This document shows positions 32,199 through 58,529 of a stretch of DNA of 64,000 nucleotides, in pieces. Numbering within the stretch: position 1 is the stretch's first letter; each line of letters opens with the position of its first letter. Origin of the DNA: Chrysiogenia bacterium (GTDB taxonomy: Bacteria; Acidobacteriota; Aminicenantia; UBA2199); the NCBI GenBank assembly GCA_043826505.1, contig JBDRQC010000004.1, forward strand, positions 315,419 through 379,418, read 5' to 3'. Below the pieces are notes generated by a model, which ran no database searches, was not told where the DNA came from, and saw only the letters and a list, made by a program, of their open reading frames with translations. The translations under genes and the position numbers were made by a program.

Positions 32199-32356
32199 TG
32201 ATTTCACCTTCCAAGCGCTGCATCAATCAGGCGCGCTTCGGCAACTGCCCCTCAATGTCCACATCATGATCATGGTATTAAAACCCGGATAAATAGTCAA
32301 CAGCCGATTATGAACAGCCAATATCAAGAGCTATCCCAGAGGCCTTCTTCACCTTT

Positions 32357-36626: not shown

Positions 36627-36627
36627 C

Positions 36628-39224: not shown

Positions 39225-39225
39225 C

Positions 39226-39837
39226 ATGCTGGAACACTATTTAAGCCTCTTTATCAAATCGATTTTCATCGAAAATATGGCCTTGGCTTTTTTCTTGGGC
39301 ATGTGCACCTTTCTGGCCGTGTCCAAACGGGTGGAGACCTCCCTGGGCCTGGGTGTGGCCGTGGTTGCCGTGCAGGCCATCACCGTGCCCGTCAACAACC
39401 TCATTTACAACCATGTGCTGAAAGCCGGTGCCCTGGAATGGCTGGGTTTGGGCGAACTTGATCTGACATTTTTAGGGCTCATCACCTATATCGGAGTTAT
39501 TGCCGCCATTGTCCAGATTTTGGAGATGACCCTGGACAAATATTTCCCGGCGCTCTACAACGCCTTGGGCATCTTTCTTCCCCTGATCACCGTCAATTGC
39601 GCCATCCTGGGCGGCTCACTCCTGATGGTTGAGCGCAACTACACTTTTGGCGAAAGCGTGGTATACGGCTTCGGTTCAGGCATAGGTTGGGCGCTGGCCA
39701 TCATTGCCCTGGCCGGCATCCGTGAAAAGATGAAATACAGCAATGTCCCGGCTGGACTGCGGGGCCTGGGCATCACCTTCATCACCGCCGGCCTGATGGC
39801 CCTGGCTTTCATGCTCTTTTCCGGAATTCAATTGTAG
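39226..39837 (+). CDS. nqrE: Na+-NQR subunit E
   Basis: [30 protein letters not shown]. Confidence 0.96.
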
Positions 39838-39845
39838 AGGTCAAG

Positions 39846-41078: not shown

Positions 41079-41082
41079 ATCG

Positions 41083-42111: not shown

Positions 42112-42115
42112 AAAA

Positions 42116-42271
42116 TTGTTGATAATAAAATTGGCAGTCGCTGCCTTGCTTCTCTTTGTCCTTTTTGGCGTAGCGCTCCTGTTCACCCAGCTGCGCAAAA
42201 AGAAAATAAGGCAAAGCTGCGCCGATAATGGGCAACACAGCTGCCAGAGCTGCAGTTGTGAGCGGTTTTGA
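42116..42271 (+). CDS. nqrM: NQR maturation factor NqrM-like (51 aa; absent from the ORF track)
   Basis: TTG start 7 nt after GGAG; MLIIKLAVAALLLFVLFGVALLFTQLRKKKIRQSCADNGQHSCQSCSCERF = TM helix, basic patch, four Cys; directly after apbE. Confidence 0.75.
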   Translation: MLIIKLAVAALLLFVLFGVALLFTQLRKKKIRQSCADNGQHSCQSCSCERF

Positions 42272-42458
42272 GTCCTGGCTGCTGATGAGAAATGCAATTG
42301 ATTCCATAAAGGGATAATGGAAACGCCTCCCGGGTTTTTAATCACATTTCTCCCCATTGCTGCCTGACCCCTTTATATAAAAGGCTTTCAGGGATTTAAA
42401 AACTACAAAAATCATTATTGTAATTCATTCATGAACAATACTATATTTTGCAAAATCA

Positions 42459-43175
42459 ATGAAAACATCGCAGCCACAGATTCTGGAAAACCAAAACACC
42501 GCCGCCTTGCTTCAACTCGAATGCAGCGCTGTCATTCCAGGTCCGCATGCCTGTCAGGGATCGAAAAAAATTTCCCTGCCGCTCCACCATGTGGATATCC
42601 GCTCCCGGCCCCGTTTTGAGGATGACATGAATCTAGTGCTGGGCTGGATGGCAGTAGAAAATCAAAATAGCATCGATAGAGGATACGGGGTGTTATTCAA
42701 GGAGCTGGGACCTGATGAGATACGCCTCGGCACGGAACAGCAGCTGTTGATCTTTTTTTATCTGTATCGCCGACTTTTGGGTTTTGTCCGGGTGATCGAA
42801 TTGGCCGAGAACCATTGGGAGATCGGCTCGGCCATTTCTGCCCCGGATTTCAGGCGATATTATTCTGGATTCAACAAGCTCTTCAATGCCAGTTCACTGC
42901 TGAGGATTTCCGCGAATACCGCCAGAGAAAACAAAGCGGCTGCCTGCGTCATGATTGTTACCTACAATGAAGGGGTCGCCCGCTCGGTCAGGAACCTGCT
43001 GCGGTCTCCCGCGGACCGGTTTTTCATTTTGAATAACCGCCGGTTCGATTTTTCCATGATCAAAGAACTGGTTCCGGAAAAAGAGGGAAAACTGATCGAA
43101 ATCTATGACCTGGGGGATAAACTGCTGGCAAGAGAAATGCTTTTTCTCTTTGATGTTTCGGCCTGCCTTGTATAG
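42459..43175 (+). CDS. Hypothetical protein with GNAT-like segment
   Basis: LLGFVRVIELAENHWEIGSAISAPDFRR resembles GNAT beta3-beta4/motif A. Confidence 0.5.
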   Translation: MKTSQPQILENQNTAALLQLECSAVIPGPHACQGSKKISLPLHHVDIRSRPRFEDDMNLVLGWMAVENQNSIDRGYGVLFKELGPDEIRLGTEQQLLIFFYLYRRLLGFVRVIELAENHWEIGSAISAPDFRRYYSGFNKLFNASSLLRISANTARENKAAACVMIVTYNEGVARSVRNLLRSPADRFFILNNRRFDFSMIKELVPEKEGKLIEIYDLGDKLLAREMLFLFDVSACLV

Positions 43176-43344
43176 CTTAAAATAACCATTGACAATTTTA
43201 GAATTTAAACCCTCCCCGGATGGTCTTTTGACACATGACAGCATTTTCTTTTAATATGTATTTTATGACTAAAATTGATTTTACTGTCAATTGTTAGTAT
43301 TTTGAGGTTCTTTTGAGATTACGTTTGGTTTAGGAGGTAAAAAC

Positions 43345-43776
43345 ATGGACAGCAAGTCCGGGAAGCAGATGGCCAAGATGGTGGACGCGGTTCAGCCTCA
43401 CTGCGACGAACCGATCGTTGCGGCGATGACATGCAGCCACGAGGGATCGATGAGCTCGACATTGATTTCCAAGTTTTTGGGTGGAGCCGGAGCAGGCGGG
43501 AAATCCTGCCAGCTCCCCAACCCGGTCTTCATCGCTGTCGGGGCCAACACCATTTACGCTTTCGATTATAGACCCCGGGGCTTCAGGTTCAAGATCAAGA
43601 AAGAAGTCGCTCGCTGGCCCAGGAATGAGATAACGGTTGCAGCCCAGGAGACAGGCATGATGTGCCACTTCACCATGACGACGAGCGCGGGAGAGAGCTT
43701 CGCCCTGGAAGTGCCAACGGTAATGGGCGGACAAGAACTGGTTCAGCTGTTCCTTGCCGCCATGGGAGCATCGTGA
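43345..43776 (+). CDS. Hypothetical protein (possible bacterial PH-like fold)
   Basis: AGGAGGT SD; beta-rich pattern FIAVG..TIYAF...VARWPR.EI. Confidence 0.65.
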   Translation: MDSKSGKQMAKMVDAVQPHCDEPIVAAMTCSHEGSMSSTLISKFLGGAGAGGKSCQLPNPVFIAVGANTIYAFDYRPRGFRFKIKKEVARWPRNEITVAAQETGMMCHFTMTTSAGESFALEVPTVMGGQELVQLFLAAMGAS

Positions 43777-43852
43777 GGGCAACCATATCCTCTAAACCAT
43801 GTAAGTTGTTAGTGTAACCGATAAAAATCGCATTTCAGGTTTTTATCGAAGC

Positions 43853-44818: not shown

Positions 44819-44913
44819 TTTTCCTCCATTTTTGACATAAACCATTCTATTGATAAAAAAATTAAATTCAAGCACTGATTCGAGAAACATAATACCATAG
44901 ACATTGGGGTAGC

Positions 44914-45082
44914 GGGGATAAGTCTGAATTGTGAAGTTATGTGCCGGAGATGCTCTGCCAGTGCCTATCCTGACTTCAATATCCGCCCCCGTTCACTGGC
45001 CGATGCGCAGCCTTGTCCGGACGGGCGCAATGCCTATTTTTCTCAAATTCCCTTGCGAACTTCAGAATGCAGACCCGACCCC
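44914..45082. repeat. MITE/REP-like element with 25-bp imperfect terminal inverted repeats (GGGGTC family)
   Basis: GGGGATAAGTCTGAATTGTGAAGTT (44914-44938) vs reverse complement of 45058-45082, GGGGTCGGGTCTGCATTCTGAAGTT (19/25). Confidence 0.65.
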
Positions 45083-45107
45083 GATGGCTCCTTTTAATGG
45101 CTTTGGG

Positions 45108-46211
45108 CTAAAAAATGAAAAAGAGTACTGCTACTGCAAGTAAAACTGCCAGGACAGTGACGATAATTTTAAAAACACTGTACGGACGTTCACCTTGCAC
45201 CTCTCCTGTCTGCCCATTGACCAGGAAGCGGTAGACTTTCTGATTGTAGCGGTAGGAACTTATCCAAACCGGCAAAAGGATATGCTTGAAGGTAACGCTT
45301 TGGTACCGGGAATTCAGGCTCAGGATACGCTGTTCATCCCCAGCAATATCCCGGCGGACACGATTATCGATCTCACGCTTCATCACCACTTTAGCCAGGT
45401 CCAATCCCGACTTTATATCGATCCCGTACGCCTCGCAACGAAATCCGCTTAAAAAGCGATCGTCATAGGCAGTGAGCTGGCTGAGATCCCAGGGATTGAG
45501 ATGTTTTATGATTTTTTCAGGCAAAGAGCGGGTAGCCGGGACCAGCACATCATCAAACAGGACCTCAACGTTGCCGGCGCATGGCGACCAGCTGACTTTT
45601 CTTATCTGGCGTGCCTTGTCGATCGTGCGGCCATTTTCTTTTTTGGCATAGTGCTCGGAGACATAATGATAGGTGCCCTGTAATCCCGTATATTGGTTGA
45701 AGGTTCGGGCATCATAGGTCCAGTACGGCACATACATGCCATCCATGGATTCACAGGCCAGGCGCGACATGAAATCACGCGGGGCAAACCAGAACTTTCT
45801 GATCCACTTTTGAAAAAACTCGCTGCTTTTTTGCTTGTCGATCACGAAAGGTACAAGAGACTTTGGCTTGATAAGGGACTGAGCGCCGCCATTGGCCACC
45901 ACCAGCCGGGTGTCGCAATATGGACAGGCCGCGGCCGTCACTTGATCGGCAAGGGTTGTCCGGGCGCCGCATCCCGGGCACTTGACGGTGCGGATGATGA
46001 GTTGTTCCGATTTTTCGGCTGGCTGAGATATGAATTTTTCGAGATCGATCTCTTCTACTGTTTCCCCGGCCTTTTCAACGAGATTTTCCGCCCCGCAATA
46101 CTGGCATTTCAGCGAGGAGGTGCCGGGATCGAAGTTGACGGTGGCGCCGCATTGCCTGCAGGTCAATTCCTGGTTGACGGCTTCGGTGATTTTCGGTTCA
46201 AATTGCGCCAT
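45108..46211 (-). CDS. Zinc-ribbon membrane protein (YdjG-like; family often mislabelled primosomal protein N')
   Basis: Four CxxC pairs (CRQC, CQYC, CPGC, CPYC), GMYVPYWTYD, HILLPVWI, NGQTGEVQGERP, C-terminal TM. Confidence 0.82.
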   Translation of the reverse strand: MAQFEPKITEAVNQELTCRQCGATVNFDPGTSSLKCQYCGAENLVEKAGETVEEIDLEKFISQPAEKSEQLIIRTVKCPGCGARTTLADQVTAAACPYCDTRLVVANGGAQSLIKPKSLVPFVIDKQKSSEFFQKWIRKFWFAPRDFMSRLACESMDGMYVPYWTYDARTFNQYTGLQGTYHYVSEHYAKKENGRTIDKARQIRKVSWSPCAGNVEVLFDDVLVPATRSLPEKIIKHLNPWDLSQLTAYDDRFLSGFRCEAYGIDIKSGLDLAKVVMKREIDNRVRRDIAGDEQRILSLNSRYQSVTFKHILLPVWISSYRYNQKVYRFLVNGQTGEVQGERPYSVFKIIVTVLAVLLAVAVLFFIF

Positions 46212-46250
46212 TGGTTATCCCCTTTATTTTACCATTTCCACCATCGCTCA

Positions 46251-47774
46251 TTACGGCATGGCGTTCGGCGCTTGCATGTATGGGCGGAGCGGATTGTCGA
46301 AGTCAAAGCCGAAGAGGCGCGGGTTCTCACCGATGACTGCAACGGAGAAGATTTTCAATACGTAGTCCTTGGTCTGTTTTGGAATGCGGTCGGCGAACTT
46401 GGTATAGAAGCGCCAGTAGTTACGGGCGGCGGGGTTCTGCGCCAGCTCATCCTCGGAGATGTCTTCCAGGCCCGGCAGCTCGCGCAGCCTGGAAACGATG
46501 CGATGCTCGCCCCAGTTGTATGAAGCCATGACCAGCAGCCCCGACGCCTGGGCCAGCTCGCTGTATATGTCGCGGAGATAGCGGGCCGCCGCCTTTGTCG
46601 CTTTCTCGAAGTTCTGCCGTTCATCAGAGGGGTCGACCCGTGACGTGTCGTGGCGGACACCGGGATCCAGGCCGTAGCGCCGGGCCGTGGACGGAATGAA
46701 CTGCCACATTCCCTTGGCGCGGCCATAGCGCGTGCGTGGCCCGACGGCAAGCGGGTCGAATCGGCTCTCCTGCAACGCCAGGTAAAAGAACTGCGGCGGC
46801 AGGCCGTGCTTCTGCATCGTCCGCACAATGAAAGGCGTGTAGCCTTTGGCCGTGGCCTCCTGAAAGATCCGCTTAAGGCTGTGACGCGCGGGGAACCAGT
46901 ACATCTTGATCTGCCGCAGCACCGCGGCGACGAAGCCCGCCGGCAATTGGATCTCGCTTTCGTTGAAGATGCGCGTGACCCGGAAGATCGCCCGCTCTTC
47001 CTTGCTGAGCCGATGGTAAATGCCGAGGTCGTCGAGAAAGTCATTGTAGCGGCTGGCCTGTTCCAGCCTGCCTTGCTCCAACCGGGCCAGCTGCTCCTCC
47101 AGCTTTGCACCGCCCTGCTCTTCAATGAGGATACGCAGCCGCGCCATGCGCACGTCCTGTTCCTTCATACTGTAGAAGATCTCCTGGGCGGCGTCACGCA
47201 TTTTTTCCAAATGGATCTCACGCCGGATGGCCAGACTCATCATGGTCAGGGCCACGGCCACGGCCGCCGCAATGAGCCCGCCGTAAAAGCGTTTCTGTTG
47301 CCGGCGCACCATCCCATAGGCGCGACGGATCATCATTGTATGCTTGCCGGACTGGCTGCGCTCGTTCCCTGCCTCCAGGTAATAACGGATATATTCGTTC
47401 AGTTCGCCCGAGGCATCCACGGCACCGGCGCTCCTTTCTATCGTGATCTGGAACTGCGGCCCCACTTTTCCCAGCCGCAGGGCATGGGTCCCGATCAGTT
47501 TCACCAGCTTGATGCGCTTGCTGTCAAGATACGAACCGTTGGTGCTGCCGAGGTCGCGCACCCACCAGGCCTCTTGATCAAAGAAGACCTCAGCGTGCCG
47601 GCGGCTCACGACGTCCTCCTGTTCAACTCGCACCTCACAGCTCTCGTCCCGGCCAATGCAGAACGACTCGCTGAAGCGGCGGTCGATCAGCGTTTGGCCG
47701 GATCTGCCGCCCTTGATATGGATGGATGGCGGCCGCGCCTGCTGCTGCCGCATCGGCCGTGTTGTAGGATCCAT
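46251..47774 (-). CDS. FHA domain - TM - coiled coil - lytic transglycosylase (SLT/MltD-like) fusion
   Basis: FHA: IGR, VSRRHA, DLGSTNG; TM FYGGLIAAAVAVALTMMSLAI; SLT: LALQESRF, AKGMWQFIPSTAR, SYNWGE. Confidence 0.88.
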   Translation of the reverse strand: MDPTTRPMRQQQARPPSIHIKGGRSGQTLIDRRFSESFCIGRDESCEVRVEQEDVVSRRHAEVFFDQEAWWVRDLGSTNGSYLDSKRIKLVKLIGTHALRLGKVGPQFQITIERSAGAVDASGELNEYIRYYLEAGNERSQSGKHTMMIRRAYGMVRRQQKRFYGGLIAAAVAVALTMMSLAIRREIHLEKMRDAAQEIFYSMKEQDVRMARLRILIEEQGGAKLEEQLARLEQGRLEQASRYNDFLDDLGIYHRLSKEERAIFRVTRIFNESEIQLPAGFVAAVLRQIKMYWFPARHSLKRIFQEATAKGYTPFIVRTMQKHGLPPQFFYLALQESRFDPLAVGPRTRYGRAKGMWQFIPSTARRYGLDPGVRHDTSRVDPSDERQNFEKATKAAARYLRDIYSELAQASGLLVMASYNWGEHRIVSRLRELPGLEDISEDELAQNPAARNYWRFYTKFADRIPKQTKDYVLKIFSVAVIGENPRLFGFDFDNPLRPYMQAPNAMP

Positions 47775-47840
47775 AAGGTGATGAAATCCTTAGCGGAGCG
47801 GACTTTTCGTCAGAATTGCCCCTCTATTGCACAATCGCGT

Positions 47841-48344
47841 TCAAGCGGGGGCCGCAGGGTCCTTCATGATCAGGATGTTCTGGTCGGGATTATCGTGCAT
47901 GTACTTGATCTGGACCTTGGTTCCTACTTCGAATTTCAGGCGAATGGCCAGGTCGGAGCTCACGTTGCTCTTGCGCCCCACCCTTTCGTTGCCGCTGCTG
48001 TCGCGGAACTTGAACTCGACAATGGAATAGATCGGCTTGTTGTTGACCAGCATGCCGTAATTCTTGTCGAAGAAGGTGATGGTCGCCTCGGCCGGCACGC
48101 CCATGGCGAATATCTTCTCGGCCAGGGCCTTGTTTTTTTTCCCCTGGACCAGGCTGCGGATGAACAGGATCGCGCCAATGATCATGAAGATCAGGCCCAG
48201 GCCCCCGAAGACGATCATGTTCAAATTCGCTAGATCCACTTGCAGGTTCCCTGAAAGCAGGTCGTTTACGAGACCGACCCCGCCGCCAACCAGAAAAAAG
48301 ATCAAACCGAACAAAAACAGAAAACCACCGATCAACATGCCCAT
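47841..48344 (-). CDS. DUF3592-like membrane protein
   Basis: Two TM helices, then GVPAEATI...VEFKF.D..G...VGTKVQIKY...NP. Confidence 0.7.
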   Translation of the reverse strand: MGMLIGGFLFLFGLIFFLVGGGVGLVNDLLSGNLQVDLANLNMIVFGGLGLIFMIIGAILFIRSLVQGKKNKALAEKIFAMGVPAEATITFFDKNYGMLVNNKPIYSIVEFKFRDSSGNERVGRKSNVSSDLAIRLKFEVGTKVQIKYMHDNPDQNILIMKDPAAPA

Positions 48345-48512
48345 GTTTTTTCTCCTTGCGCTCGACTTCATCCAGAAAGCGCATGCTTTTTTAAAACTTA
48401 ATTTTATACAAACAAGCGGGCATGGTCAACCGTCCCGGTTTTCATTTTTTGGCTGACAGCAGCCTGATCCATTGCCCGGCTATACCCGATCCCGACGGCT
48501 TTCCGCAATCCT

Positions 48513-49331
48513 TCAGTTGACGGTAAAAGGCAACTCCGCTTTGTTGTTGCTTTCGTTGGTCTCGACAAGGGAATGATCGCTGTCACAGACGGCCTTGGCC
48601 AGATAGTTCTGGGCAATGGAGAGTTTTTCAATGCGCTTGATGGTGAAAGGCATACCGGGATTGAGTGCCGGTACATTGAAAATACGCGGGTAAGTTTCTC
48701 CGCCGATGGCAAAGGAAGCTTTTGTTGGAGTCGATGCCACGGTGCCGATATTTTTGATTTCGGCAAAAAAGTAAATCTCCTGATTGATCCTAGGATTCTC
48801 GGGTTTCATATAGATCCTTGCTACCGTAAGATCGGGGCCTTGAATGGAGCAGCTCAACCTTTTGGTGAGCCGGTTATTCGCCTCATTGCTTTCGATGATC
48901 CTGGAATTGTCATCCACTGTGGCGGTGACGGAACTGACTCCGGCCGGCATGGTCGAGAAGCTGTCAGTAACAAACCATACGTGGGAAACAATGCCCCCCG
49001 GTTTTTTCAATTTCCCCAAGGGATCTACCTTGCGCAAATATCTTCCGACCGACGGAATACTTCCGATCGCAACCCGTACGGACGATGCTTTGCTGTCATC
49101 ACCTACCATTCCGTATTTTTCATCCGGGACACCGGCATTTCCCTGGTTCAATATGGTGATCTCTACTTTGCATTCTCCATTGATATGAACCACATTCATT
49201 TTGGTAATTGTCAGATCGGGCAATTTCAGCAATTGCGGGGTGGGAAGCGGTTTTTTTTGGATTTTTTCTCCGAATACATGGAAACTGGCAATCCCCAACA
49301 CCAGTAAAAAAACCAAGCTGTGTTTTTTCAT
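48513..49331 (-). CDS. Secreted protein with two CARDB domains
   Basis: Signal peptide; two repeats PDLT...N.G...D....I/VESNE.NN. Confidence 0.85.
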   Translation of the reverse strand: MKKHSLVFLLVLGIASFHVFGEKIQKKPLPTPQLLKLPDLTITKMNVVHINGECKVEITILNQGNAGVPDEKYGMVGDDSKASSVRVAIGSIPSVGRYLRKVDPLGKLKKPGGIVSHVWFVTDSFSTMPAGVSSVTATVDDNSRIIESNEANNRLTKRLSCSIQGPDLTVARIYMKPENPRINQEIYFFAEIKNIGTVASTPTKASFAIGGETYPRIFNVPALNPGMPFTIKRIEKLSIAQNYLAKAVCDSDHSLVETNESNNKAELPFTVN

Positions 49332-49567
49332 TTTTTCTCTCCTTTGCTTTCTTGTCAATTAAATAAAAGAAAGGCGGTTTTTATCTCAATATTGATTGAA
49401 TTGAATTAAGCTATCTGTGTCTTGTGCCATTTTTTGCATATTGTTCCGGCCTCAATGATTCTGCCCAATAAAACAGGGAGCGGGCGGGAGACGGACCGAT
49501 TTTTTTCAGCAGACAATTTCATTAATCCGCTATTTCGTATACAATGATTCAAACAGGAGGAAATGAA

Positions 49568-50344
49568 ATGCCAGACAAAGGTACGAAGAAAAAATTGACC
49601 CATGTAGAAGGCGGCGAATCGTCGGCCGAGGCCCGGGAGGCCAAGCCCTTCATCGCGACTCCGCAAAGCAAGGCCAAGGCAAAAAAACTGCGCATATTTT
49701 CGATCCTTTCCTGGATCGTGGCCATCGGCCTTGAGGTCGGCGCGATCCTGATGCTCAAAAAAGTGCCGGTCAATACCACCTGGCTCATCGTTCTGATCGC
49801 GGCCGATCTGATCTTCGCCGTTTTCGGCAACCTGCTCTGGAAGAAAGCCAACCGCTTCGATCCCGCCTCGGAAAAGGAGAAGTTCAAGTTCTTCGTCCAG
49901 AACCAGCTGGGCGCGATCATTGCCGTCATCGCTTTCCTGCCCCTGGTCATCCTGATCCTGACAAGCAAGGACCTGAAGGGCAAGCAGAAGGGCCTGGTCG
50001 GCGCCGTCGCCGTCATCGCCCTGCTGATCGCGGGATTCACGGGCATCGACTTCAAGCCGCCGTCCCAGGAACAGTACGCTGCCCAGACTGCCCAGGTCGA
50101 GCAGTTGACCGGGCAGAACCATGTTTATTGGACGAAGTCAGGCACGAAGTATCACCTGTTCGCGGACTGCTACCATATCAATACGAAAAGAACGGATGAG
50201 ATCTTCGAGGGCACCGTGGCCCAAGCCAGGGAACTTAAGAACATCAACGAACTCTGCAACACCTGCGAGCACCGCTGGAAAAAGGAAAAAGCCCTGCCCG
50301 CCGAAACCACGACCCCCGAGGTCGAAGAAGAGCAGACCGAATAA
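49568..50344 (+). CDS. 4-TM membrane protein with C-terminal metal-binding domain
   Basis: KKANRFDPASEK; VYWTKSGTKYH...C...LCNTC; AGGAGG SD. Confidence 0.72.
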   Translation: MPDKGTKKKLTHVEGGESSAEAREAKPFIATPQSKAKAKKLRIFSILSWIVAIGLEVGAILMLKKVPVNTTWLIVLIAADLIFAVFGNLLWKKANRFDPASEKEKFKFFVQNQLGAIIAVIAFLPLVILILTSKDLKGKQKGLVGAVAVIALLIAGFTGIDFKPPSQEQYAAQTAQVEQLTGQNHVYWTKSGTKYHLFADCYHINTKRTDEIFEGTVAQARELKNINELCNTCEHRWKKEKALPAETTTPEVEEEQTE

Positions 50345-50500
50345 TACAGACGTTCCCTGGACCATCAGATCGTTCCCCATACCGCTGAATTAATATATCG
50401 TCGCATAGTCAGCCACCAATTGAACAAGGCCTGGGTGCCCATCACCCAAAATGCGAAGCTGTCAGATCAAATGCAATATAAAAGACCCCGCACTCGGGCC

Positions 50501-50553
50501 CATTCAGCCTTATTCCCCATCCCCCTCAATGTCTATTATTGAGACCTGCCCCC
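50501..50553. repeat. Inverted-repeat element end (GGGGTC/TAGACATT family)
   Basis: AATGTCTATTATTGAGACCTGCCCCC (50528-50553) matches 58391-58416; 50501-50536 is an inverted copy of 44897-44931. Confidence 0.65.
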
Positions 50554-50581
50554 AATAGATTCCCTGAAAAACCGGGTTGGC

Positions 50582-51070
50582 TCAGGCGCTGAACACGCTG
50601 CCGCGCAGGCTGGTGATCTTTTCGATGAAGAGCCTTTTCTCCCCGGCGGGAACGGTAACGACCACCTCCTCGCCGACGGTGCGGTCTTGCAGCGCCCTGC
50701 CCACCGGCGAGCCAAGGGAGATTTTGCCTTCGGAAGGATCGACCTCGATGGGATGGACGATGGTGTACTCGCTGCGGGTGTTGGAGTTGAGCTCGAGCAC
50801 CACCACGACCGAGCCGAAGCCGACGGTCTTTTCGTCGGTATGGGACGAAGCCACATCGTTGTATTGGCTCACCAGGTGGCTCAGCTGGGCGATGCGGGCC
50901 TTGAGGAAAGCCTGCCGTTCGCGGGCGGCGTCGTATTCGGCGTTTTCGCTGAGGTCGCCCTGGGCACGCGCTTCGGCAATGCGTTTGGGCATCTCGACCT
51001 GGTACTCTTCGCGGAGCTTGTCGATCTCCTCCAGGAGCGCTTTCTTCTTCTGTTTGATTGAATCCGTCAT
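50582..51070 (-). CDS. greA: Transcription elongation factor GreA
   Basis: ARAQGDLSENAEYDAARERQ, ISLGSPVGRAL. Confidence 0.93.
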   Translation of the reverse strand: MTDSIKQKKKALLEEIDKLREEYQVEMPKRIAEARAQGDLSENAEYDAARERQAFLKARIAQLSHLVSQYNDVASSHTDEKTVGFGSVVVVLELNSNTRSEYTIVHPIEVDPSEGKISLGSPVGRALQDRTVGEEVVVTVPAGEKRLFIEKITSLRGSVFSA

Positions 51071-51330
51071 CCGTGACCGCCTCCAGGAACCTAAGGTATT
51101 CTGTCACAAGAATATACAACGGATCGGGAATAATTGCAAGCTCCTGCGCCGGTCCGCTGCGCCCTTAAAAACAGATTCTGCTATCTATACCATTTATTAA
51201 AATATTTGAAGCCCACAGTAAACACCGGGCCAGCTATTTACGTAATTGTATGCACCATCGCCAACGGGCGTCCATGAGCTCCCCTTAAACCCCAGCTTTG
51301 ACTTTGCGGAAAGTTGTCAAGAATTCAGGA

Positions 51331-51348
51331 AACGTCCCCGAGTTCCCC
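51331..51348. repeat. Solo GTCCCC-family repeat end
   Basis: AACGTCCCCGAGTTCCCC resembles CATCGTCCCCAAGCTTCCCC at about 56142. Confidence 0.4.
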
Positions 51349-51467
51349 ATGTTTCCGGCCTGGTTGTCACTTTTTACGGACATATTTTGCATATAAACTT
51401 GGAAACTAACTTGCTTAAATATTTTCGGCCTTGGAAATTGGATTTTATCATCGCCAGAGAGGTGACC

Positions 51468-52136
51468 ATGCGCCGAACAAGCAAGGGAGGTTCGTTCAGA
51501 GGAGCGACTCGCGGTGCGGGTCTTGCTTTTGCCGGGCTCTATGTCATGCTGGCCGCCGGCTGCGTGACGGTCCGGCATGGCATGCGCGCTCAGCCGACTT
51601 TTTCCCCCGCAGAACCGCTGAAAACGTACGAGCTGCGGCAAAGGGCCTGGACGCTGGGCGATCAATTCGTCATCGAGGACGAATGCCGCCGGCCGGCGTT
51701 CTACGTCAGGGGAAGGGCTTTTTCCGTGGGGGACAAGCTCTCCTTTCAGGATGCCGACGGCAACGAGCTGGCCTATATTTCCCAGAAAGTCTTGAGCCTG
51801 CGGCGGAATTACAGGATTTACAGGCGGGACCATTTGTTCGCCAGGGTCGTGAAGAAATTGACCCCTTTCCGGCAGCATTTTGTCGTGAGCGTAGCGGGGG
51901 CCGAGGATTACCGCGTACGCGGCAACTTCTGGAATTACGAATACACCTTCACGCGCGGCGGCAGGAAAGTGGCCGTTGTCTCGAAGCGGCCCTTCGCCTG
52001 GCCCGACGCCTACAGGATCGTCATCACGGCGGACGAGGACGACATCCTGATCCTGGCCGCGGCCGTGGCCATCGACCTGATCGCGCACGACGACCCGGAC
52101 ACAGCCGGCATACCGCCCTGGATTTGCCGCCGCTGA
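51468..52136 (+). CDS. LURP-one / tubby-C (scramblase-like) protein with putative lipoprotein signal
   Basis: GDQFVIED, FSVGDKL, V.GNFWNYEY, VSKR.F.W.D.Y; lipobox LAAGC. Confidence 0.85.
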   Translation: MRRTSKGGSFRGATRGAGLAFAGLYVMLAAGCVTVRHGMRAQPTFSPAEPLKTYELRQRAWTLGDQFVIEDECRRPAFYVRGRAFSVGDKLSFQDADGNELAYISQKVLSLRRNYRIYRRDHLFARVVKKLTPFRQHFVVSVAGAEDYRVRGNFWNYEYTFTRGGRKVAVVSKRPFAWPDAYRIVITADEDDILILAAAVAIDLIAHDDPDTAGIPPWICRR

Positions 52137-52289
52137 ACGCCGCCGTCAGGGCATTTTCAAGCCATCGAGCGGCCCCTCATCGGCGGCGCGGTTAGCATCT
52201 TCGGCCGGACCTTGCCCGGAGTGATGCGCCGCGAACGCTGAAGCTGGTTAGGTCAAGGATCAAAGGAGCGCGGGGACCGCGCTTCCCCC

Positions 52290-53150
52290 TTATCTCTTGG
52301 CCATGATCTCGGCTGAGACTTTTTTCATGTCGACTTCCCTTTTGTAAAGGGGAGATTTGTCTTTTTTATAGACTTCAAGATTTTCCTCGAAGGTGGCGCG
52401 CTGAGCGCTTTGGTACAGGATGCCCAGGGGAAACGGTTCTTCTTCAAGGGATTTTTTGAAGGCGGCGGTTTGGTTGGAAGGGTCGTAATCGTCAGGCAAA
52501 TAATTGGTGTTGTCCTTGAACCAACTGAAAGTATTGACCTTGTTGAATGAAAGGCATGGCTGGAATATGTCCACCAGGGCGAACCCCTTGTGCAGGATCG
52601 CCTTCTTCATTATTTCCTTTGTCCGCTCCACGTCACCGCAAAAAATTCTGGCCACGAAAGCCACATCCAGTGAGATCGCCAGGGCTATGGGGTTCAGCGG
52701 CTTTTCAAATACGCCGAAAACCTGGACCGGGGTTTCCATGCCCGGCCTTGAAGTGGGCGCGGCCTGGCCCTTGGTTAGCCCGTAGACCATGTTGTCATGC
52801 ACAAACAGCGTGATATCGGGATTGCGCCGGCTGGCGTGCAGCAAATGGTTTCCGCCCTCGCCGTACATGTCGCCGTCGCCGCCCACGGCGATGACCGTCA
52901 GTTCGGGATTGCACGCCTTGATCGCGGTCGCAGCCGGCAGCCCGCGTCCGTGCAGTCCGTTGAAAAAGCTCGTGTTAATGTATTGCGGCATTTTCGCGGC
53001 CTGGCCTATTCCCGAAACCAGCACCACATTTTCCTTGGCAAGATCGAGCTCCGCAAGCGCGGCCAGCAATGACTGGCGAATGGAATAGTTGCCGCAGCCG
53101 GGACACCAGGCGATATCGATCTTGTCCGCAAAATCAAAAATGTTTTCCAT
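52290..53150 (-). CDS. 2-oxoacid:ferredoxin oxidoreductase beta subunit
   Basis: WCPGCGN, GLHGR, TPP motif GGDGD...[10 protein letters not shown]. Confidence 0.95.
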
Positions 53151-54852
53151 GACGTCCTCCGGCTTGAAGCAACCTTTGAATTTCTTTTTTGACTTCTTCG
53201 ACCGAAAAAGGCAGGCCGTTGTATTTCAATATGGCCTGTTCAATGGCGACCCCGGTCGCCAGTTTGAGCAGCCGTGCGAATTGCGCCGATGCATTGTTTT
53301 CCACGACGATCAGGTTGGCCGCTTTCCTTAAATACTCGCCGGCCTTTTCCGGCAAGGGAAAGAGCCATGAGAAATGCAAAACGGCGAGTTCCTTGTTTCC
53401 CAGAGCGGCGACTGCTTCGCAGACGGTATGGAATGTCGACCCCCAGCAGACTACCAGTGTCTTGAAATTGCCGCTGCCGACCAATCGGGGCGGAATGATG
53501 TCCGCTCGAATCGCCGCTGATTTTTCAAGACGCTTGTCGACCATCTTGACCCGTAGATCGGGATCCTCGGTGATACGCCCGCCTTCGTCATGCTCGTCGC
53601 TGTCCACGCAGATATTGCCGGAACCGTAGCCCGGTATGCCGCGGGGAGATATGCCGTTTTGGGTCAGGGAAAAGCGCTTGTAATCTTTCCCGGTTTTGAC
53701 GATATGTTTTTCGACTTTGAGATCCGTGACAGCGAAGGCCGGGGTATTGTAGCGGCTGTCGACAAAAAACTGATCCGTAAGAATGAAAACCGGGACCTGG
53801 TATCTGGCGGACAGGTTGAAGGCCTTCTGGGTCAAAGCAAATCCTTCGGCCAGGGTTCCCGGCGCCAGGATGATGCGGGGGAAATCGCCGTGGCCTGCAT
53901 GCAGGACCAGTTCCAGGTCGCCCTGTTCGGTCCGGGTGGGGAGCCCCGTGGCCGGCCCCGGACGCTGCGCCAGGTGGAGCACCAACGGCGATTCGATCAT
54001 GCCGCCCAAGCTTATGCCTTCGCTCATCAGGGCGAACCCGCCACCGGAAGTCGTGACCAGCGCCCGGGCGCCGGCGTACCAGGCGCCAAGCGCCATATTT
54101 ACCACGCCGATCTCGTCCTCGACCTGCTCGACAATAATTGGAAATTTTTTGGCATAGGAGGCCATTTCCACAAGGACGCCCGTCGCCGGCGACATGGGAT
54201 AAGCGCATACGTAATCGCAGCCTCCGGCCAGGGCTCCCATTGCGATCGACTCGGAACCCGAGAGCAGCAGCTCCTTCTTCACGGCGGCGTCTTTTTCAAT
54301 GGCAATGGTGATCCCGGCCAGCCCTTTGCCAGCCGCGTAGCCTTTCCTGATCGCTGCAAGATTTTTGCTCCTGATTTCCTCGCTTTTCCCGGCGAAATAG
54401 TCAAGGATGAAGTCGGCGCATTCCTGTTCATCGACTTTCAGGAGTCCGCAGATGCAGCCGGCGGCGATCGTGTTGGCAAAAACGGCGCCGCCTATTTCCT
54501 TGGCCATCCCGGTGAACTGGATGTCGATCATGCCCTGGTGACCGATCTTCTCCTTTTCTCCGATCACGATCGTATGCGCCGTGATCCTCTTTTTCAGATG
54601 GGTGATCGCTTCCTTGTGCAGCGGGATCAAAATGTCGATGCGCTCAAGAAACCCGGCCGCCCTTCCGGCAGAGACACGGATCTCGGTGGAATTGGCGCCT
54701 CCCCTTACCCGCGACATGAACTCGGATGCCGAAAAATAATTGTAGCCGCTGTTTTTCAACAACTGGGCCAGGATGCTTTCGATCGATTGTATGCCCTGTC
54801 CGGCCTCCCCGGCCAGGACGATCACCAGGTCATCGGATATGGTTTTTATCAT
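53134..54852 (-). CDS. 2-oxoacid:ferredoxin oxidoreductase alpha subunit (gamma-alpha fusion)
   Basis: [37 protein letters not shown]. Confidence 0.95.
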
Positions 54853-54936
54853 GCTGTCCTCATCATCAGGTCGGCCCGGGCGAATCGGCTGCGGCAATTT
54901 GAGCAATTGCCGGGAAACCGTCGCGGTCCGGCCAGG

Positions 54937-55131
54937 CTAGTTGCTGCCGTCCGTCCCGTCGTTGCACGGTTCGTCGGCGGCAGCGGGGCGCGCCGTCTCG
55001 GCGTCAAAGGGCTTGCCGCAGCCCTCCAGTTTGGGCGTCATGGACAAGCCGCAGCATAAGGGTATTTTTCCGTTTTGAGAAATCGGTTTTTCCTTTCGGC
55101 ATTTTTCACAGCGGTACGTTTTATCATTCAT
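54937..55131 (-). CDS. Small desulforedoxin-like metalloprotein (64 aa)
   Basis: YRCEKC-x14-CCGLSM plus a C-terminal C...AETAR....DEPC segment; upstream of the oxidoreductase genes. Confidence 0.7.
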   Translation of the reverse strand: MNDKTYRCEKCRKEKPISQNGKIPLCCGLSMTPKLEGCGKPFDAETARPAAADEPCNDGTDGSN

Positions 55132-55204
55132 GATTCCTGCCCCCTTCTTTTGCATAAACTTTACTATGCCGGACAAAAAATAACAAGCAGATTTCAAAGA
55201 AGAT

Positions 55205-55358
55205 ATGGGAGGCTGCATGGTTTTTTGCCTGAACCCTGTTTCTCAATTTCGCACATGCCTGCCAGCCAGCCCGTACGATCAATAAAGTCAGCAGAAATTT
55301 TTATTCTTTTCTCAATTTGCAATAAATACATATTTGCCGGCACCGTCCTCAAACTCCC
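55205..55358. repeat. About 150-bp repeat element A, copy 1
   Basis: Highly similar to 58224-58376 (shared AACCCTGTTTCTCAATTTCG, ACGATCAATAAAGTCAGCA, CAATAAATACATATTTGC); ends degenerate. Confidence 0.85.
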
Positions 55359-55366
55359 AGAGAGCC

Positions 55367-55395
55367 TTGCTTTAGGAGGCCGCGGCTCCTATAAT
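55367..55395 (+). promoter_or_regulatory. Sigma70 promoter of the methyltransferase gene
   Basis: TTGCTT-17 bp-TATAAT, ending 9 nt before ATG 55405. Confidence 0.65.
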
Positions 55396-55404
55396 GAGTG
55401 CGGA

Positions 55405-56103
55405 ATGGAAGATTATTACGCCGAACGGCTGGCGGCGGAAAAGCTGCGCCGCTGCTACGAGATCGCCCCGCCGCGAATACGGCAGTACCTGCGCGCCGAG
55501 CTCGACTTCGCCCTGGAATTCTTCCATGCCGGCGATTCGATCCTCGACCTGGGTTGCGGCTACGGCCGCACCCTCCCGGAGCTGGCCGCGCGCGCGGGCT
55601 CGGTCACGGCCATCGACAATGCTCCGGCCAGCATCGCCCTGGCGCGAAAGACCGTCGAGAATTTCGCCAACGTCGAGGTCAGGGAAATGGACGCCGGCGC
55701 ACTGCAGTTCGCCGACGACACTTTCTCCGTGGTCCTCTGCCTGCAGAACGGCATCTCGGCGTTCCATCGCGACCCGGCAACGCTCCTGCGCGAGGCGCTG
55801 CGCGTCTGCCGCCCAAAAGGCACGGCTCTGTTCTCCACCTACACTGAAAAATTCTGGCCGCAGCGCCTGGTATGGTTCGAGCTCCAGGCGGAAGCAGGGC
55901 TTCTCGGCGAGATCGATTGGCAGCGGACCGGCAACGGCTTCATCGCCTGCAAGGACGGCTTTACGGCCACCACCTTCACGCCCGACCAGTTCCACTCGCT
56001 CGCCTCGGGCCTTGCTGCCGATCTCACCCTGAACGAAGTGGACGGCTCGAGCCTTTTTTGCATCTTGAGGAAATCAAATCCGGCAGTCACATCCCGGGCA
56101 TAG
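55405..56103 (+). CDS. Class I SAM-dependent methyltransferase
   Basis: ILDLGCGYGR, AIDNA, MDAGAL.F, EALRVCRPKG. Confidence 0.9.
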   Translation: MEDYYAERLAAEKLRRCYEIAPPRIRQYLRAELDFALEFFHAGDSILDLGCGYGRTLPELAARAGSVTAIDNAPASIALARKTVENFANVEVREMDAGALQFADDTFSVVLCLQNGISAFHRDPATLLREALRVCRPKGTALFSTYTEKFWPQRLVWFELQAEAGLLGEIDWQRTGNGFIACKDGFTATTFTPDQFHSLASGLAADLTLNEVDGSSLFCILRKSNPAVTSRA

Positions 56104-56160
56104 GTTGCCGCTAGCCATTAACTGAAAGTAACAAAGTCAAGCATCGTCCCCAAGCTTCCC
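56010..56160 (+). repeat. Repeat B copy 1 (methyltransferase 3' end plus GTCCCC end)
   Basis: Diverged direct copy at about 57395-57556; ends in GCATCGTCCCCAAGCT. Confidence 0.8.
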
Positions 56161-56246
56161 CAGCTCCACGCTCATGGCCAGGCACCGGCGCTTTTACGGC
56201 ATTTTTGTTAATGTCATGGAAATGTGATAACATTTACTTCACTGAA

Positions 56247-57293
56247 ATGGGGCTGCTATTAATATACTTGACCGTTGCCTTGGTATTTTCGTTCTTCTGC
56301 TCCCTGCTTGAAGCTTCACTGCTAAGCACTTCACCCATCTTCATTAACACCAAGATAAAAGAGGGAAAGAAGTATGCGAAAAGACTTCAGCAATTCAAGA
56401 AAAACATCGACTTTCCGTTGGCAGCCATTCTCACACTGAATACCTTTGCCCACACCATCGGGGCTGCCGGTGTGGGATCCCAGGCCCAGATCATATGGGG
56501 AGAGGAGTTTCTTACCATCGTATCCATTATCCTGACACTGGTAATACTGATCGGATCAGAGATCATCCCCAAAACACTGGGGGCCATCTACTGGAAAAAA
56601 CTGGGGGCATTTACAGTGGTTTCATTGAAAGTGATGATCTATTCACCATTGTATCCATTCATCCTGATGACCCAGCTCATCACAAGGATGTTGAAAAAAG
56701 GGAAACCACTCAATACAATCAGCCGGTCGGATTTCAGGGCCATTGCCGATTGCGTGATCGAAGAGGGCGTCATCAACGACGAGGAGTCCCAACTCCTGAA
56801 AAACCTGATGCGGTTCAATCAGATCAAGGTAAAAAGCATCATGACACCGCGTGTGGTTGTATTTGCGGCCGAGGAAAATACGGCGATTGAGGAGTTCTAT
56901 AGTTCGAACAGAGAGATCCGCTTCTCGCGGATTCCGGTATACGAAAAGGAGCTCGGTCACACAACCGGATTTGTGTTGAAGGATGAATTCATGGAAATGA
57001 TCATTGAGGGGAAGGGAGACAAGCCCCTGAAGGAGATCAAGAGGGAGATATTCACGGTGGTTGAAACCATGCCCATCATGCGGCTTTTTTACAAGTTCAT
57101 CGAATTAAAGGCCCATATTGCAATGGTGGTGGATGAGTATGGAACGGTATCGGGAATCGTAACCATGGAAGATGTGATCGAAACACTGATTGGCCTCGAG
57201 ATCATGGATGAAATGGATGACGTCGAAGACATGCAGGTACTGGCCAGGAAAGCATGGGAACAGCGGGCTAAAAAACAGGGTTTCATTAAATGA
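56247..57293 (+). CDS. CNNM/CorB (DUF21 + CBS) Mg2+ transporter / hemolysin-family protein
   Basis: SFFCSLLEASLLS, ILTLNTFAHTIGA, SEIIPKT, IMTPR, FSRIPVY, VDEYG. Confidence 0.92.
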   Translation: MGLLLIYLTVALVFSFFCSLLEASLLSTSPIFINTKIKEGKKYAKRLQQFKKNIDFPLAAILTLNTFAHTIGAAGVGSQAQIIWGEEFLTIVSIILTLVILIGSEIIPKTLGAIYWKKLGAFTVVSLKVMIYSPLYPFILMTQLITRMLKKGKPLNTISRSDFRAIADCVIEEGVINDEESQLLKNLMRFNQIKVKSIMTPRVVVFAAEENTAIEEFYSSNREIRFSRIPVYEKELGHTTGFVLKDEFMEMIIEGKGDKPLKEIKREIFTVVETMPIMRLFYKFIELKAHIAMVVDEYGTVSGIVTMEDVIETLIGLEIMDEMDDVEDMQVLARKAWEQRAKKQGFIK

Positions 57294-57394
57294 CGGCGTT
57301 TGACGCATTGAATTCAAACAGGATTGTCACTACGGCCCTGAATCAAACGAAGGGGCAATAGGGACGGATGGCAAAAAGACAAAGCTCGCTGTCT

Positions 57395-57556
57395 GCCCTG
57401 GCCGCCGGCATGCCTGCTGCCCTCATATTGTCCGAGGCGGACGGCTCGAGCCTTTTTGTGTCTTGAGGAAATCAAATCATGCGGATACATCCCGGACACA
57501 GGCTGCCGGCCGCCATTAGTTGAAAGCAACAAAATCAAGCACCGTTACCAGTTCCC
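57395..57556 (+). pseudogene. Frameshifted remnant of a paralogous methyltransferase 3' end plus repeat end (repeat B copy 2)
   Basis: LAAGMPA-LILSEADGSSLF aligns to LASGLAADLTLNEVDGSSLF; shared TCTTGAGGAAATCAAATC. Confidence 0.72.
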
Positions 57557-57592
57557 TTTTCCCAAAATCCCCCCGATCCGCCGGTGCCGTGT

Positions 57593-58096
57593 CTAATGGA
57601 TTAATCCCAATTGCTTCATTTGGGTAAAAGTGTCGAAATAGGTCCTGTCCTCGGCGACCAACCCATCAGGCCCGATCTTGAAGAGAGTCACGGATCGCAT
57701 TTTGACACTGTTGCCGGTGGGAGCCAAATCCCCTTCCGGAGTGGCCAGGGGGCCAGTAAACGTTCCCGAAATATTGAATTCGATAATGATCGTGTCCCCG
57801 GAAAACAGGATCGAGGTCGGCTCGCCTTTCAAATCCGGCACGGCCCTGAGGGTGGTCTGGTAGTATTTTAAAAAGGCCTCGCGGCCGCGCACCGGCTCCG
57901 GCTGGTCCGGGGTGATCATGACGGCGTCCGGCGCATAGGTGTTGGCCAGGGCCACGGGATCGCCACTGTTCATCGCTTCGATAATGTTTTTCGCGATCTT
58001 CTTCATGTCCAGCTTCGGCTCTTCCGCGTAGCCCCGGGCGGCAACCGCGAGCAGACAAACGCCGGCCAGAAAAATTACCAGGATTTTGTTTTTCAT
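57593..58096 (-). CDS. Secreted SnoaL/NTF2-like (ester cyclase family) protein
   Basis: Signal peptide; YAPDAV, VRGREA, GTFTGPL...APTG..V, EDRTYFD. Confidence 0.85.
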   Translation of the reverse strand: MKNKILVIFLAGVCLLAVAARGYAEEPKLDMKKIAKNIIEAMNSGDPVALANTYAPDAVMITPDQPEPVRGREAFLKYYQTTLRAVPDLKGEPTSILFSGDTIIIEFNISGTFTGPLATPEGDLAPTGNSVKMRSVTLFKIGPDGLVAEDRTYFDTFTQMKQLGLIH

Positions 58097-58189
58097 GATA
58101 CCCTCCCTTTCTATTGCCTGAAGCAATAATTTTTTTACTATAATTTAGGTCATTTTTAATGTCAAGCGCTTCAAGGAAGCATAGCTCCG

Positions 58190-58440
58190 GGGGTCAGATC
58201 CCGACAATAGACATTAAGCGATCAGCTTGGGGACGATGCAAGCATTTTTGCATAAACCCTGTTTCTCAATTTCGGACATGCATGCCAGCTGCCCGCACGA
58301 TCAATAAAGTCAGCATAAAATCTTATTCTTTTCTTAATTTACAATAAATACATATTTGCAAGCACTGTCCCAAGCTCCGTCAACTTCTTCAATGTCTAAT
58401 ATTGAGACCTGACCCCGATGCGATCTGACCCCGATGCGAT
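58190..58440. mobile_element. Nested MITE/REP-like element: GGGGTCAG-type TIRs enclosing element A copy 2
   Basis: Outer TIRs 58190-58215 / 58391-58416 (21/26); inner TIRs AGCTTGGGGACGATGC (58224-58239) / GCACTGTCCCAAGCT (58362-58376); tandem CTGACCCCGATGCGAT x2 at 58409-58440. Confidence 0.72.
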
Positions 58441-58529
58441 CCCAAAACGCGCCCCTGGATTATATAGTTTTATTTGTTGTGCCATGATCAAGTGAATCAG
58501 TGAAGAATGGGGACGCCGGGTCCGGCGGC

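Follow-up and report, generated by a model that had tools for sequence, protein, structure and literature searches.

The window analyzed here is a 64,000-nucleotide stretch (G000:C4:315419-379418; contig JBDRQC010000004.1) from a Chrysiogenia bacterium of the class Aminicenantia, Acidobacteriota (assembly G000: 2,008,426 bases, 9 contigs, 68% complete). Between about 44.9 and 58.4 kb its spacers carry short repeats of two families, in the neighborhood of a CARDB-domain gene, POR and LOR genes, methyltransferase and SnoaL genes, a CNNM/CBS transporter gene and a BlaI gene. An earlier note, made from the sequence of the window, had described these repeats as two interleaved inverted-repeat families and had proposed that they might define an undescribed integron-like system capturing genes at repeat ends. 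We read the claimed sites letter by letter, searched the window for repeats, and followed both families through the assembly and into related genomes, which are denoted below by assembly (G), contig (C), and locus (L) numbers; public sequencing runs were used as assembled contigs only.

Two repeat families in the window

The core of family 1 is GGGGTCAGGTCTCAA, often followed by TATTAGACATT, and a family-2 end begins GGGGACGRTGC, with exact instances at 56141-56151 and 58229-58239. With up to three mismatches allowed, the family-1 core is matched six times in the window against 1.74 expected, a number reached in 1 of 100 shuffles of the window. The match at 58402-58416 (minus strand) is exact and that at 50539-50553 (minus strand) has one mismatch, and there are three mismatches at 58190-58204 (plus strand), 45068-45082 (minus strand), and 58418-58432 (minus strand; a partial tandem copy). 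The sixth match, also with three mismatches, at 42357-42371, is probably due to chance, and the statement of the earlier note that the first 43 kb lacks clear copies holds in the motif scans. The elements found are the following.

44890-45082, no strand: degenerate family-1 element of 193 nt, with a right arm at 45058-45082 and a weak left arm at 44908-44942
44897-44905, within the 44890-45082 element: extra arm piece TAGACATT
50526-50553, minus strand: solo family-1 end GGGGGCAGGTCTCAATAATAGACATTGAG, 1 mismatch in the core, 90% identical to 58389-58419
51277-51346, no strand: doubtful family-2-like end ACGTCCCCGAGTTCCCC near 51331, with ACGTCCCCGAG only, missed by the core scan
55207-55350, plus strand: family-2 miniature copy A, ~143 bp, with degenerate ends of sub-type 2c (GGGAGGCTGC... 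/ ...GCACCGTCCTC)
56125-56151, minus strand: solo family-2 end of sub-type 2a, GGGGACGATGCTTGACTTTGTTACTTT read on the minus strand
57398-57549, plus strand: diverged duplicate of 55999-56151, 73-82% identical over ~150 nt, with a degenerate 2a end at 57523-57549
58190-58218, plus strand: family-1 left arm GGGGTCAGATCCCGACAATAGACATTAAG, 79% complementary to 50525-50553
58229-58371, plus strand: family-2 miniature copy B, nested between two family-1 arms
58386-58416, minus strand: family-1 right arm, with the exact core at 58402-58416
58410-58441, minus strand: tandem 16-nt junction duplication (TGACCCCGATGCGATC twice), each unit being 7 nt of element end and 9 nt of flank

Both families exist, but some of the copies first listed are degenerate (44897-44938 and 57539) or doubtful (51331), and the family-2 sites given as 55340 and 58362 are the right ends of the two ~143-bp elements, 55207-55350 and 58229-58371. 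The stretch 44897-44938 consists only of a degenerate arm (GGGGATAAGTCTGAATTGTGAAG) and the TAGACATT piece, and it pairs with 45058-45082. The families look interleaved because a family-2 miniature is nested inside a family-1 pair, the arms of which (58190-58218 and 58386-58416) pair with each other in the minimum-free-energy fold. The differences in GC content that had been reported between neighboring genes are modest (0.475-0.591 per kb), and the reported proximity of the repeats to gene fragments is borne out by a methyltransferase C-terminal remnant at 57398-57463, which encodes LAAGMPAALILSEADGSSLFVS and a stop where the intact gene encodes LASGLAADLTLNEVDGSSLFC... There is no transposase gene in the window.

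The degenerate family-1 element at 44890-45082 is missing at the orthologous site of G015 and G010, which reads uninterrupted as ...GAAACA/AT/GATGGC..., and the genes flanking the site are 91-93% identical to those of the relatives. A relative's contig from run X6 spans the interval from 44895 to 45043 with 148 different letters. A composite transposon reaching from 44908 (plus strand) to 50553 (minus strand) was rejected because G015 and G010 keep the genes and their order without the 44890-45082 element. The spacer that holds the solo family-1 end at 50526-50553 is occupied in G011 and G008 by a family-2 element and in G010 by a MATE-type transporter gene. The latter is a 466-aa open reading frame (ORF) at L041 (G010:C133) 764-2164, which is MATE-like by reading of its sequence alone. 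The 70-nt stretch at 51277-51346 has an 84.5% match that adjoins a family-2 element in G011.

Copies A and B of the family-2 miniature are 85-89% identical, and both align at their two ends to the ends of a family-2 unit in G021. Copy A has an orthologous copy in G015:C156, and relatives of copy B with unrelated flanks are found in G015:C419, G011:C99, and G008:C11. The 27-nt arm at 56125-56151 is found in G012 at either side of a gene for a 302-aa Y1 transposase (L100 790/1769) and is present three times in G020:C246. Genome-wide there are two copies each of the miniature (55207-55348 and 58230-58370) and of the ~150-nt repeat (55999-56152 and 57398-57550); in G008, which has the methyltransferase and SnoaL genes adjacent, the 150-nt repeat is single copy. 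The CNNM/CBS transporter gene (56205-57293) is bracketed in the window by the direct repeats 55999-56151 and 57398-57549.

Transposase genes between the repeat ends

Genome-wide mapping of the family-1 core, a check that the earlier note had proposed, gave 18 copies in the 2.0-Mb genome (9 exact, 6 with one mismatch, and 3 with two), against no matches at two or fewer mismatches for the reversed motif, which served as the control for motif counts. ORFs of at least 200 aa take up 86% of the genome, yet 12 of the 18 copies fall outside them. Among 24 other genomes of the genus, 14 have the exact motif; a first draw of 16 genomes from other families had none, and in the class as a whole it is present in 41 of 301 genomes, with 0 control matches. 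In other families of the class, G230 has 29 occurrences of it, most of them in 64-nt inverted dimers, and G297 has 8; most other genomes in the families of these two have no exact motif. This patchy spread across the class suggests horizontal movement or repeated loss. The short core of family 2 is not above chance in G000 (18 matches, 16 for the reversed motif), and a strict pattern, AAGCATCGTCCCCAAGC, found in 5 of 28 genomes of the genus, was too narrow to serve. Family 2 was judged real because its longer extensions are conserved and copies are present in relatives.

Inverted copies of family 1 bound a 1076-bp unit at C1:67643-68718 of G000, outside the window, with a 325-aa ORF at C1:67702-68679. 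The same 1076-bp unit with one 325-aa ORF between inverted family-1 copies is present in G010, and the genes adjoining the G000 and G010 units match each other. In G013 an inverted motif pair at the identical 1076-bp spacing surrounds a full-length, 85%-identical gene, in G041 a transposase gene lies between inverted ends 1088 nt apart, and G012 has two units of this kind.

The 325-aa protein matches Pfam Y1_Tnp (E 1.1e-12; 48.6 bits, cut-off 23), and its gene is the sole Y1_Tnp match in the G000 assembly. All 10 aligned homologs keep the HUH motif (H60-Y61-H62) and Y119 without change, and the best NCBIfam match is REP_Tyr_transpos (NF047646; E 9e-18). [quoted passage not shown] The C-terminus of the model matches DnaA domain IV (3PVP and 1J1V; TM-score 0.80-0.81 of target). 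Searches of solved-structure sequences gave no match with phmmer and the 325-aa protein, and only a weak one, to DnaA 2Z4R (E 0.0088), with a profile of the 10 homologs; the RAYT link is therefore drawn from the fold search.

A genus search with the family-1 protein also finds paralogs at about 35% identity, and one family-2 paralog aligned to the family-1 protein is 24% identical to it. Family-2 type ends are present at 5 of the 7 paralog loci examined, and none were seen at the loci of G007 and G009. In G021, G012, and G043 they lie on both sides of a called TIRYT-like ORF of 300-309 aa, and in G020 they lie on both sides where no ORF was called by the script; at the G015 locus a single end is visible because the contig ends. 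In G021 the 300-aa paralog sits between inverted GGGGACGGTGCTTGTATTTTTGCATAAAT... ends, with an 80-bp miniature beside it. Two sub-types of end can be distinguished. Sub-type 2a (...GCTTGACTTTGTGACTTT) is that of G012, G015, and G043 and equals the solo ends of the window at 56125-56151 and 57523-57549, and sub-type 2c (...GCTTGTATTTTTGCATAAATCATG) is that of G021 and G020 and equals the ends of the window elements 55207-55350 and 58229-58371. A third GGGG-headed end type (GGGGACGGTTCTTGCATTCTTGACATC) was seen in G000 at C2:31856 and C2:32989, near the end of contig C2, where it adjoins a C-terminal fragment of a TIRYT-like gene (C2:32746-32934).

The published class that these units resemble is the TIRtron, in which a RAYT-like gene (TIRYT) is flanked by terminal inverted repeats (TIRs) and not by REPs. 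According to the portion of the account of Di Nocera, De Gregorio and Rocco (2013, BMC Genomics 14:522, PMC3733652) drawn on here, many TIRtron ends share GGGGWSAS, and the ends form moderately abundant families whose scattered members are singles, dimers, or clusters. In the part used of a later classification, 20 of 26 TIRYTs fall in TnpA_REP subclass 2.1, members of which have Bac_DnaA_C or helix-turn-helix (HTH) tails, and no REP-like sequences are reported there in the vicinity of subclass 2.1 genes (Quentin et al. 2018, BMC Genomics 19:475, PMC6006769). The family-1 protein is a Y1 HUH tyrosine transposase with its catalytic tyrosine, its gene lies between terminal inverted repeats (in G000 C1, G010, G012 twice, G041, and G013), and on the fold match and a Pfam match below cut-off it has the C-terminal DnaA-like/HTH extension of subclass 2.1. 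The family-1 end, GGGGTCAG, fits GGGGWSAS at 8 of 8 positions, and its positions 0-7 are 94-100% conserved over 102 ends. We therefore read the repeats, with a probability of roughly 85%, as the TIRs of two TIRtron lineages together with their gene-less miniatures, piled up in fast-changing DNA, which makes them a known kind of repeat. The resemblance to motifs flanking HUH/Y1 (RAYT-like) transposase genes that the earlier note had recognized is confirmed, since family 1 flanks the Y1_Tnp gene in G000 and relatives, and family 2 flanks paralogs in relatives. That note had also named, as evidence that would count against its own proposal, ends matching those of an insertion sequence of an ordinary known kind, and the TIRtron ends come essentially to such a match. 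Most of the odd repeats of the stretch are explained in this way and a candidate new system is removed; what is gained is a genus in which three end types, each with its own transposase lineage, coexist.

On this reading, a TIRtron is a unit of ~1 kb with one TIRYT gene between two 25-30-nt inverted ends starting GGGG. Family 1 stems from the unit at C1:67643-68718, family 2 comprises two sub-types from paralogous units that are intact in relatives, and the window has solo ends and miniature deletion derivatives, comparable to miniature inverted-repeat transposable elements (MITEs) or REPINs. As for the mechanism, each TIRYT would most likely recognize its own ends, and paired ends could fold as a hairpin in single-stranded DNA; cutting would take place at the GGGG boundary by the active site formed of HUH motif and tyrosine. 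The full unit, or in trans any DNA with two ends, could then move without target duplication, with a preference for a ...GCATC flank. Copies build up in the spacers of accessory regions, where insertions are tolerated and imported DNA may bring further copies. The mechanism is inferred; what the sequences show directly is the anatomy of the units with their exact boundaries, the family of the protein, the lack of target duplication, insertions that differ between species, the origin of the miniatures from full units, and the clustering in variable regions.

As far as the portions of the TIRtron account used here allow comparison, the shared features are a Y1/HUH gene within long terminal inverted repeats, a family-1 end that fits GGGGWSAS, dispersed ends, and several TIRYT lineages with their own ends in one genome group. 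Three features go beyond what those portions describe: miniatures that keep the first codons of the gene, nesting, and a 14-18-nt duplication at 11% of ends. With TnpA_REP subclass 2.1, as presented in the part of that classification drawn on, the protein shares an N-terminal Y1 HUH domain and a C-terminal helix-turn-helix resembling DnaA domain IV; the likeness is one of architecture, and here, in contrast, the flanking ends are clear and dispersed. The ends studied here are again dispersed as singles, dimers, and clusters, with dimers of 62, 113, and about 175-213 bp in G019.

The REP/REPIN system with its RAYTs (Bertels and Rainey 2011, PMC3116915) is similar in the 4ER8 fold and in a gene bracketed by its own repeats. 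Non-autonomous doublets that fold as hairpins are a further likeness: as DNA, the 62-nt family-1 dimer of G019 folds into an almost perfect hairpin (z = -5.3, equaled by 0 of 200 shuffles), and the fold of a 176-nt family-1 miniature is moderate (z = -2.6). The gene is single copy in G000, as RAYTs associated with REPs and REPINs are reported to be (Nunvar 2010). The arms here are unlike REPs in being non-palindromic and without a GTAG/CGTC tag (in single arms no self-complementary stem is longer than 4 bp, and none begins GTAG), there are ~20 copies per genome and not hundreds, and the protein is below the NCBIfam RAYT cut-off. Gene and ends are also multi-copy in G012, so the unit still behaves like an insertion sequence. 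An assignment as a REPtron was rejected because there are no 20-40-nt palindromes with GTAG/CGTC tags and because of the sub-cut-off NF047646 score.

The IS200/IS605 elements (IS608 and ISDra2) are alike in having a Y1 HUH transposase and no target duplication, and the one-sided conserved flank (...GCATC) is reminiscent of the fixed target that IS608 uses. They differ in having sub-terminal hairpins without TIRs, where the units here have TIRs of 25-30 nt and an added HTH domain, and the assignment was rejected because the units end in 25-30-nt inverted repeats. Integrons and clusters of attC sites lacking integrases (CALINs) share with this locus short imperfect repeats between unrelated genes in a variable region; here, however, the region has no integrase, and the repeats are solo, paired, or nested in both orientations. 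That assignment was rejected on two grounds, the scope being recombinase genes and the orientation and arrangement of repeats: there is no recombinase among the ORFs scanned at 26-63.6 kb, and the repeats are of mixed orientation.

Element boundaries, miniatures and junction duplications

The two full family-1 units of G012 are 95.4% identical over 1087-1088 nt and lie at different loci. On one side the identity breaks off exactly at ...CCCC, on the other within 6 nt of GGGG, and neither copy has a flanking direct repeat that would indicate target duplication. The six family-2 miniatures of four genomes have a core of ~143 nt in common, and the flanks are unrelated at at least 4 loci. A rival reading is that the repeats are the ends of a DDE-type element, for example a Tn3-family-like one or an insertion sequence-derived MITE, with the Y1 gene as a mere passenger. 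The inverted ends begin GGGG, as Tn3-family ends do, and one arm (58190-58218) ends TTAAG. On the other hand, every full unit examined contains no ORF but the Y1 transposase between its ends, target duplication is lacking at both G012 copies, and each family, with arms of 25-30 nt, goes together with a Y1 paralog of its own. We consider a DDE origin extremely improbable, and an assignment as a DDE-type insertion sequence or MITE was rejected because the G012 copies lack a direct repeat and the parent units encode only a Y1 transposase.

A family-1 miniature of 159 bp lies 10 kb beyond the window at L001 9866-10024 (L001 is G000:C4:379419-393000, directly adjoining the window). It aligns to the left 100 nt of the full unit and to the right 35 nt, and it retains both unit ends along with the start codon and parts of the gene's first 30 nt (ATGTCGCGGCCGTT). 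By such sequence comparison the miniatures are internal-deletion derivatives of full units, and the derivation of miniature from parent is visible at base level, with the boundaries of the unit and the lack of target duplication defined as well. A 118-nt piece of family-1 miniature at L001 4833 recurs with 100% identity at 9866, 5 kb away, and the copy at 4833-4950 abuts the start codon of a CAAX-protease ORF. The empty site in two species, the 95%-identical copies in G012, and the miniatures with unrelated flanks are indirect indications, drawn from sequence comparison, that the transposase may act on its ends. In a source-like run (X1) a single contig covers the whole stretch with no excision or empty-site form, a result that is uninformative on mobility, as contigs drop rare variants.

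With its outer flank, a family-1 end reads ...GCATC followed by GGGGTCAGGTCTCAAAATT... A tandem duplication of 14-18 nt (mode 16) marks 11 of the 102 distinct family-1 ends but only 20 of 20,000 random genome positions, and its unit consists of ~9 nt of local flank and the first 7 nt of the element (GGGGTCA). The sites are 58410-58441 in the window, the C1:68718 side of the G000 unit, and L008, L011, L051, L055, L063, L066, L068, L085, and L091. Since the duplicated flank differs from locus to locus, each duplication arose locally. The junction duplication may be a scar of transposition chemistry, and it hints at the mechanism of the enzyme; the group would be a workable model for a biochemical test of a TIRYT.

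Several points weigh against the TIRtron assignment. The family-2 end (GGGGACGR) fits GGGGWSAS at only 6 of 8 positions, departing from the motif at positions 7-8, which is also the difference from the ends described in the portion of the TIRtron account used here. There is no intact family-2 transposase in G000, where queries with the paralogs match the family-1 gene and two short fragments (C2:32746-32934 and C4:384060-384149); given no intact family-2 enzyme, in an assembly only 68% complete, the family-2 copies of the window may be fossils. The NF047646 score of the family-1 protein (64.5 bits) is below the 80-bit RAYT cut-off, and the Pfam Bac_DnaA_C match at its C-terminus (21.4 bits) is below the cut-off of 31.5. 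The composite at 58180-58445 folds no better than shuffles (z = -0.98; 31 of 200 as good). About 10 nt outside the GGGG of family-1 ends are semi-conserved (consensus GGAAGCATC, 50-68% per position), which leaves two options, a true end further out or a target preference, and the GATGGC already present at the empty site suggests the latter. The recurrent 16-nt junction duplications are unexplained by the TIRtron model, and no experimental cleavage or mobilization by a TIRYT was found in the literature searched for TIRYT/TIRtron.

A further explanation, compatible with a transposon origin, is that the repeats have been adopted by the host as regulatory or structural sequences. Host roles proposed for REPs include terminators, mRNA stabilizers, and promoters. 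The interior of the family-2 miniature has 79 invariant columns in 6 copies across species and contains TTCTCAATTT twice, and this conserved interior could hide a promoter or a small RNA. This miniature also occupies spacers on the promoter side of genes, such as the one upstream of the methyltransferase gene, where the position is kept in G015, and a family-1 miniature piece adjoins the CAAX-protease start codon mentioned above. However, no Rfam family matches 43-64 kb even with E values up to 1 allowed, and the conservation may reflect recent spread. A host role seems unlikely, with a modest chance of being right.

Variable DNA around the repeats

To place the repeats in relation to gene content, three repeat clusters and six repeat-free regions were compared with G041, G012, and G021. 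The clusters were patchy or scattered in 3 of 3 cases, with G041 cover of 38% (C4:196-206 kb), 11% (C4:545-556 kb), and 31% (window 43.8-60.2 kb), whereas 5 of 6 controls were collinear on one contig with 68-92% G041 cover; the sixth (window 23.8-43.8 kb) had 15%. The link of the repeats to variable DNA is real, with 3 of 3 clusters in variable regions against 1 of 6 controls, but variable DNA exists without repeats too. Repeats mark accessory DNA, and the clustering of copies is a practical marker of accessory islands in these genomes.

Within the window, the gene at 50563-51161 is joined almost directly in G011 to the BlaI gene near 59.7 kb, and in G008 the LOR, methyltransferase, and SnoaL genes are adjacent, without the POR and CNNM genes. 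The extra blocks relative to G008 are 52.2-55.4 kb, which holds the POR genes and ends with family-2 element A, and 56.1-57.5 kb, which opens with a family-2 end, holds the CNNM gene and is bracketed by the 150-nt direct repeats. In G015 and G010 about 100 nt stand in place of the CARDB-domain gene (48513-49358), and in the relative of run X6 108 nt do so; no repeat copy was found at the borders of this gene (window 48450-49555). Window 32116-43800, with an NrfA/NrfH-type nitrite reductase, a six-gene NQR operon, and ApbE, has no DNA-level counterpart in five relatives, and no repeat copy was found in window 32.1-43.8 kb. Neither the 24 ORFs of 43.8-63.6 kb nor the 17 of 26-43.8 kb include a recombinase.

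The proposal that the repeats are recombination sites of an integron-like gene capture, working without attC sites or a nearby integrase, draws on the repeats at the borders of segments that vary between species (the POR and CNNM blocks relative to G008) and on the contrast between non-collinear clusters and mostly collinear controls. The synteny test is small, however, its regions are non-independent, and it is mute on cause. The repeats are fully accounted for as the ends of transposase units and their deletion derivatives, no recombinase is encoded at 43.8-63.6 kb, and copies occur in both orientations, solo and nested, and not one per cassette. The repeats bracketing the CNNM gene are only 73-82% alike and include a gene fragment, and so are no defined site. 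Variation is also found at the same spots without repeats: in G010 the MATE-type gene fills the spacer at 50.4-50.6 kb, and the 3.2 kb examined around it contains neither a family-1 nor a family-2 motif; the block at 32.1-43.8 kb is absent from five relatives yet repeat-free. An undescribed capture system is consequently not upheld, and we consider it very improbable. The association of repeats with variable DNA is taken to mean that copies have accumulated in DNA that tolerates them or was imported, perhaps with some recombination among them, rather than that a capture system is at work.

Recombination could make a contribution of its own if the repeats were passive debris whose similar copies feed homologous recombination and so indirectly aid the turnover of islands. 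Copies cluster in four regions of C4 (199-204, 360-374, 384-390, and 548-553 kb), relatives have scattered counterparts of the regions at 199-204 and 548-553 kb and of window 43.8-60.2 kb (C4:359-376 kb), and the 118-nt piece repeated in L001 is a perfectly identical stretch. Most copies in the window, however, are poor substrates for homologous recombination, being 73-90% alike over at most 150 nt, and no junction of a rearrangement was traced back to two copies. We regard this contribution as unlikely, though it deserves some weight.

It is improbable, but conceivable, that the TIRYTs and their ends are active agents of island turnover, mobilizing DNA between compatible ends or in a one-ended manner. 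If so, neighboring genes such as that of the methyltransferase (flanked by ends at 55207 and 56151) or the CNNM gene would be carried along as cargo, such events would leave the 16-nt junction duplications as scars, and accessory regions of uncultured bacteria would have a single-strand, HUH-driven route of gene gain.

Gene fragments also occur just beyond the window. In L001 there are three fragments of an asparaginase 3' end over 9 kb near the intact gene (12529-13560), and the asparaginase-related coordinates are 3297-3335, 5909-6030, 7289-7559, and 12527-12797.

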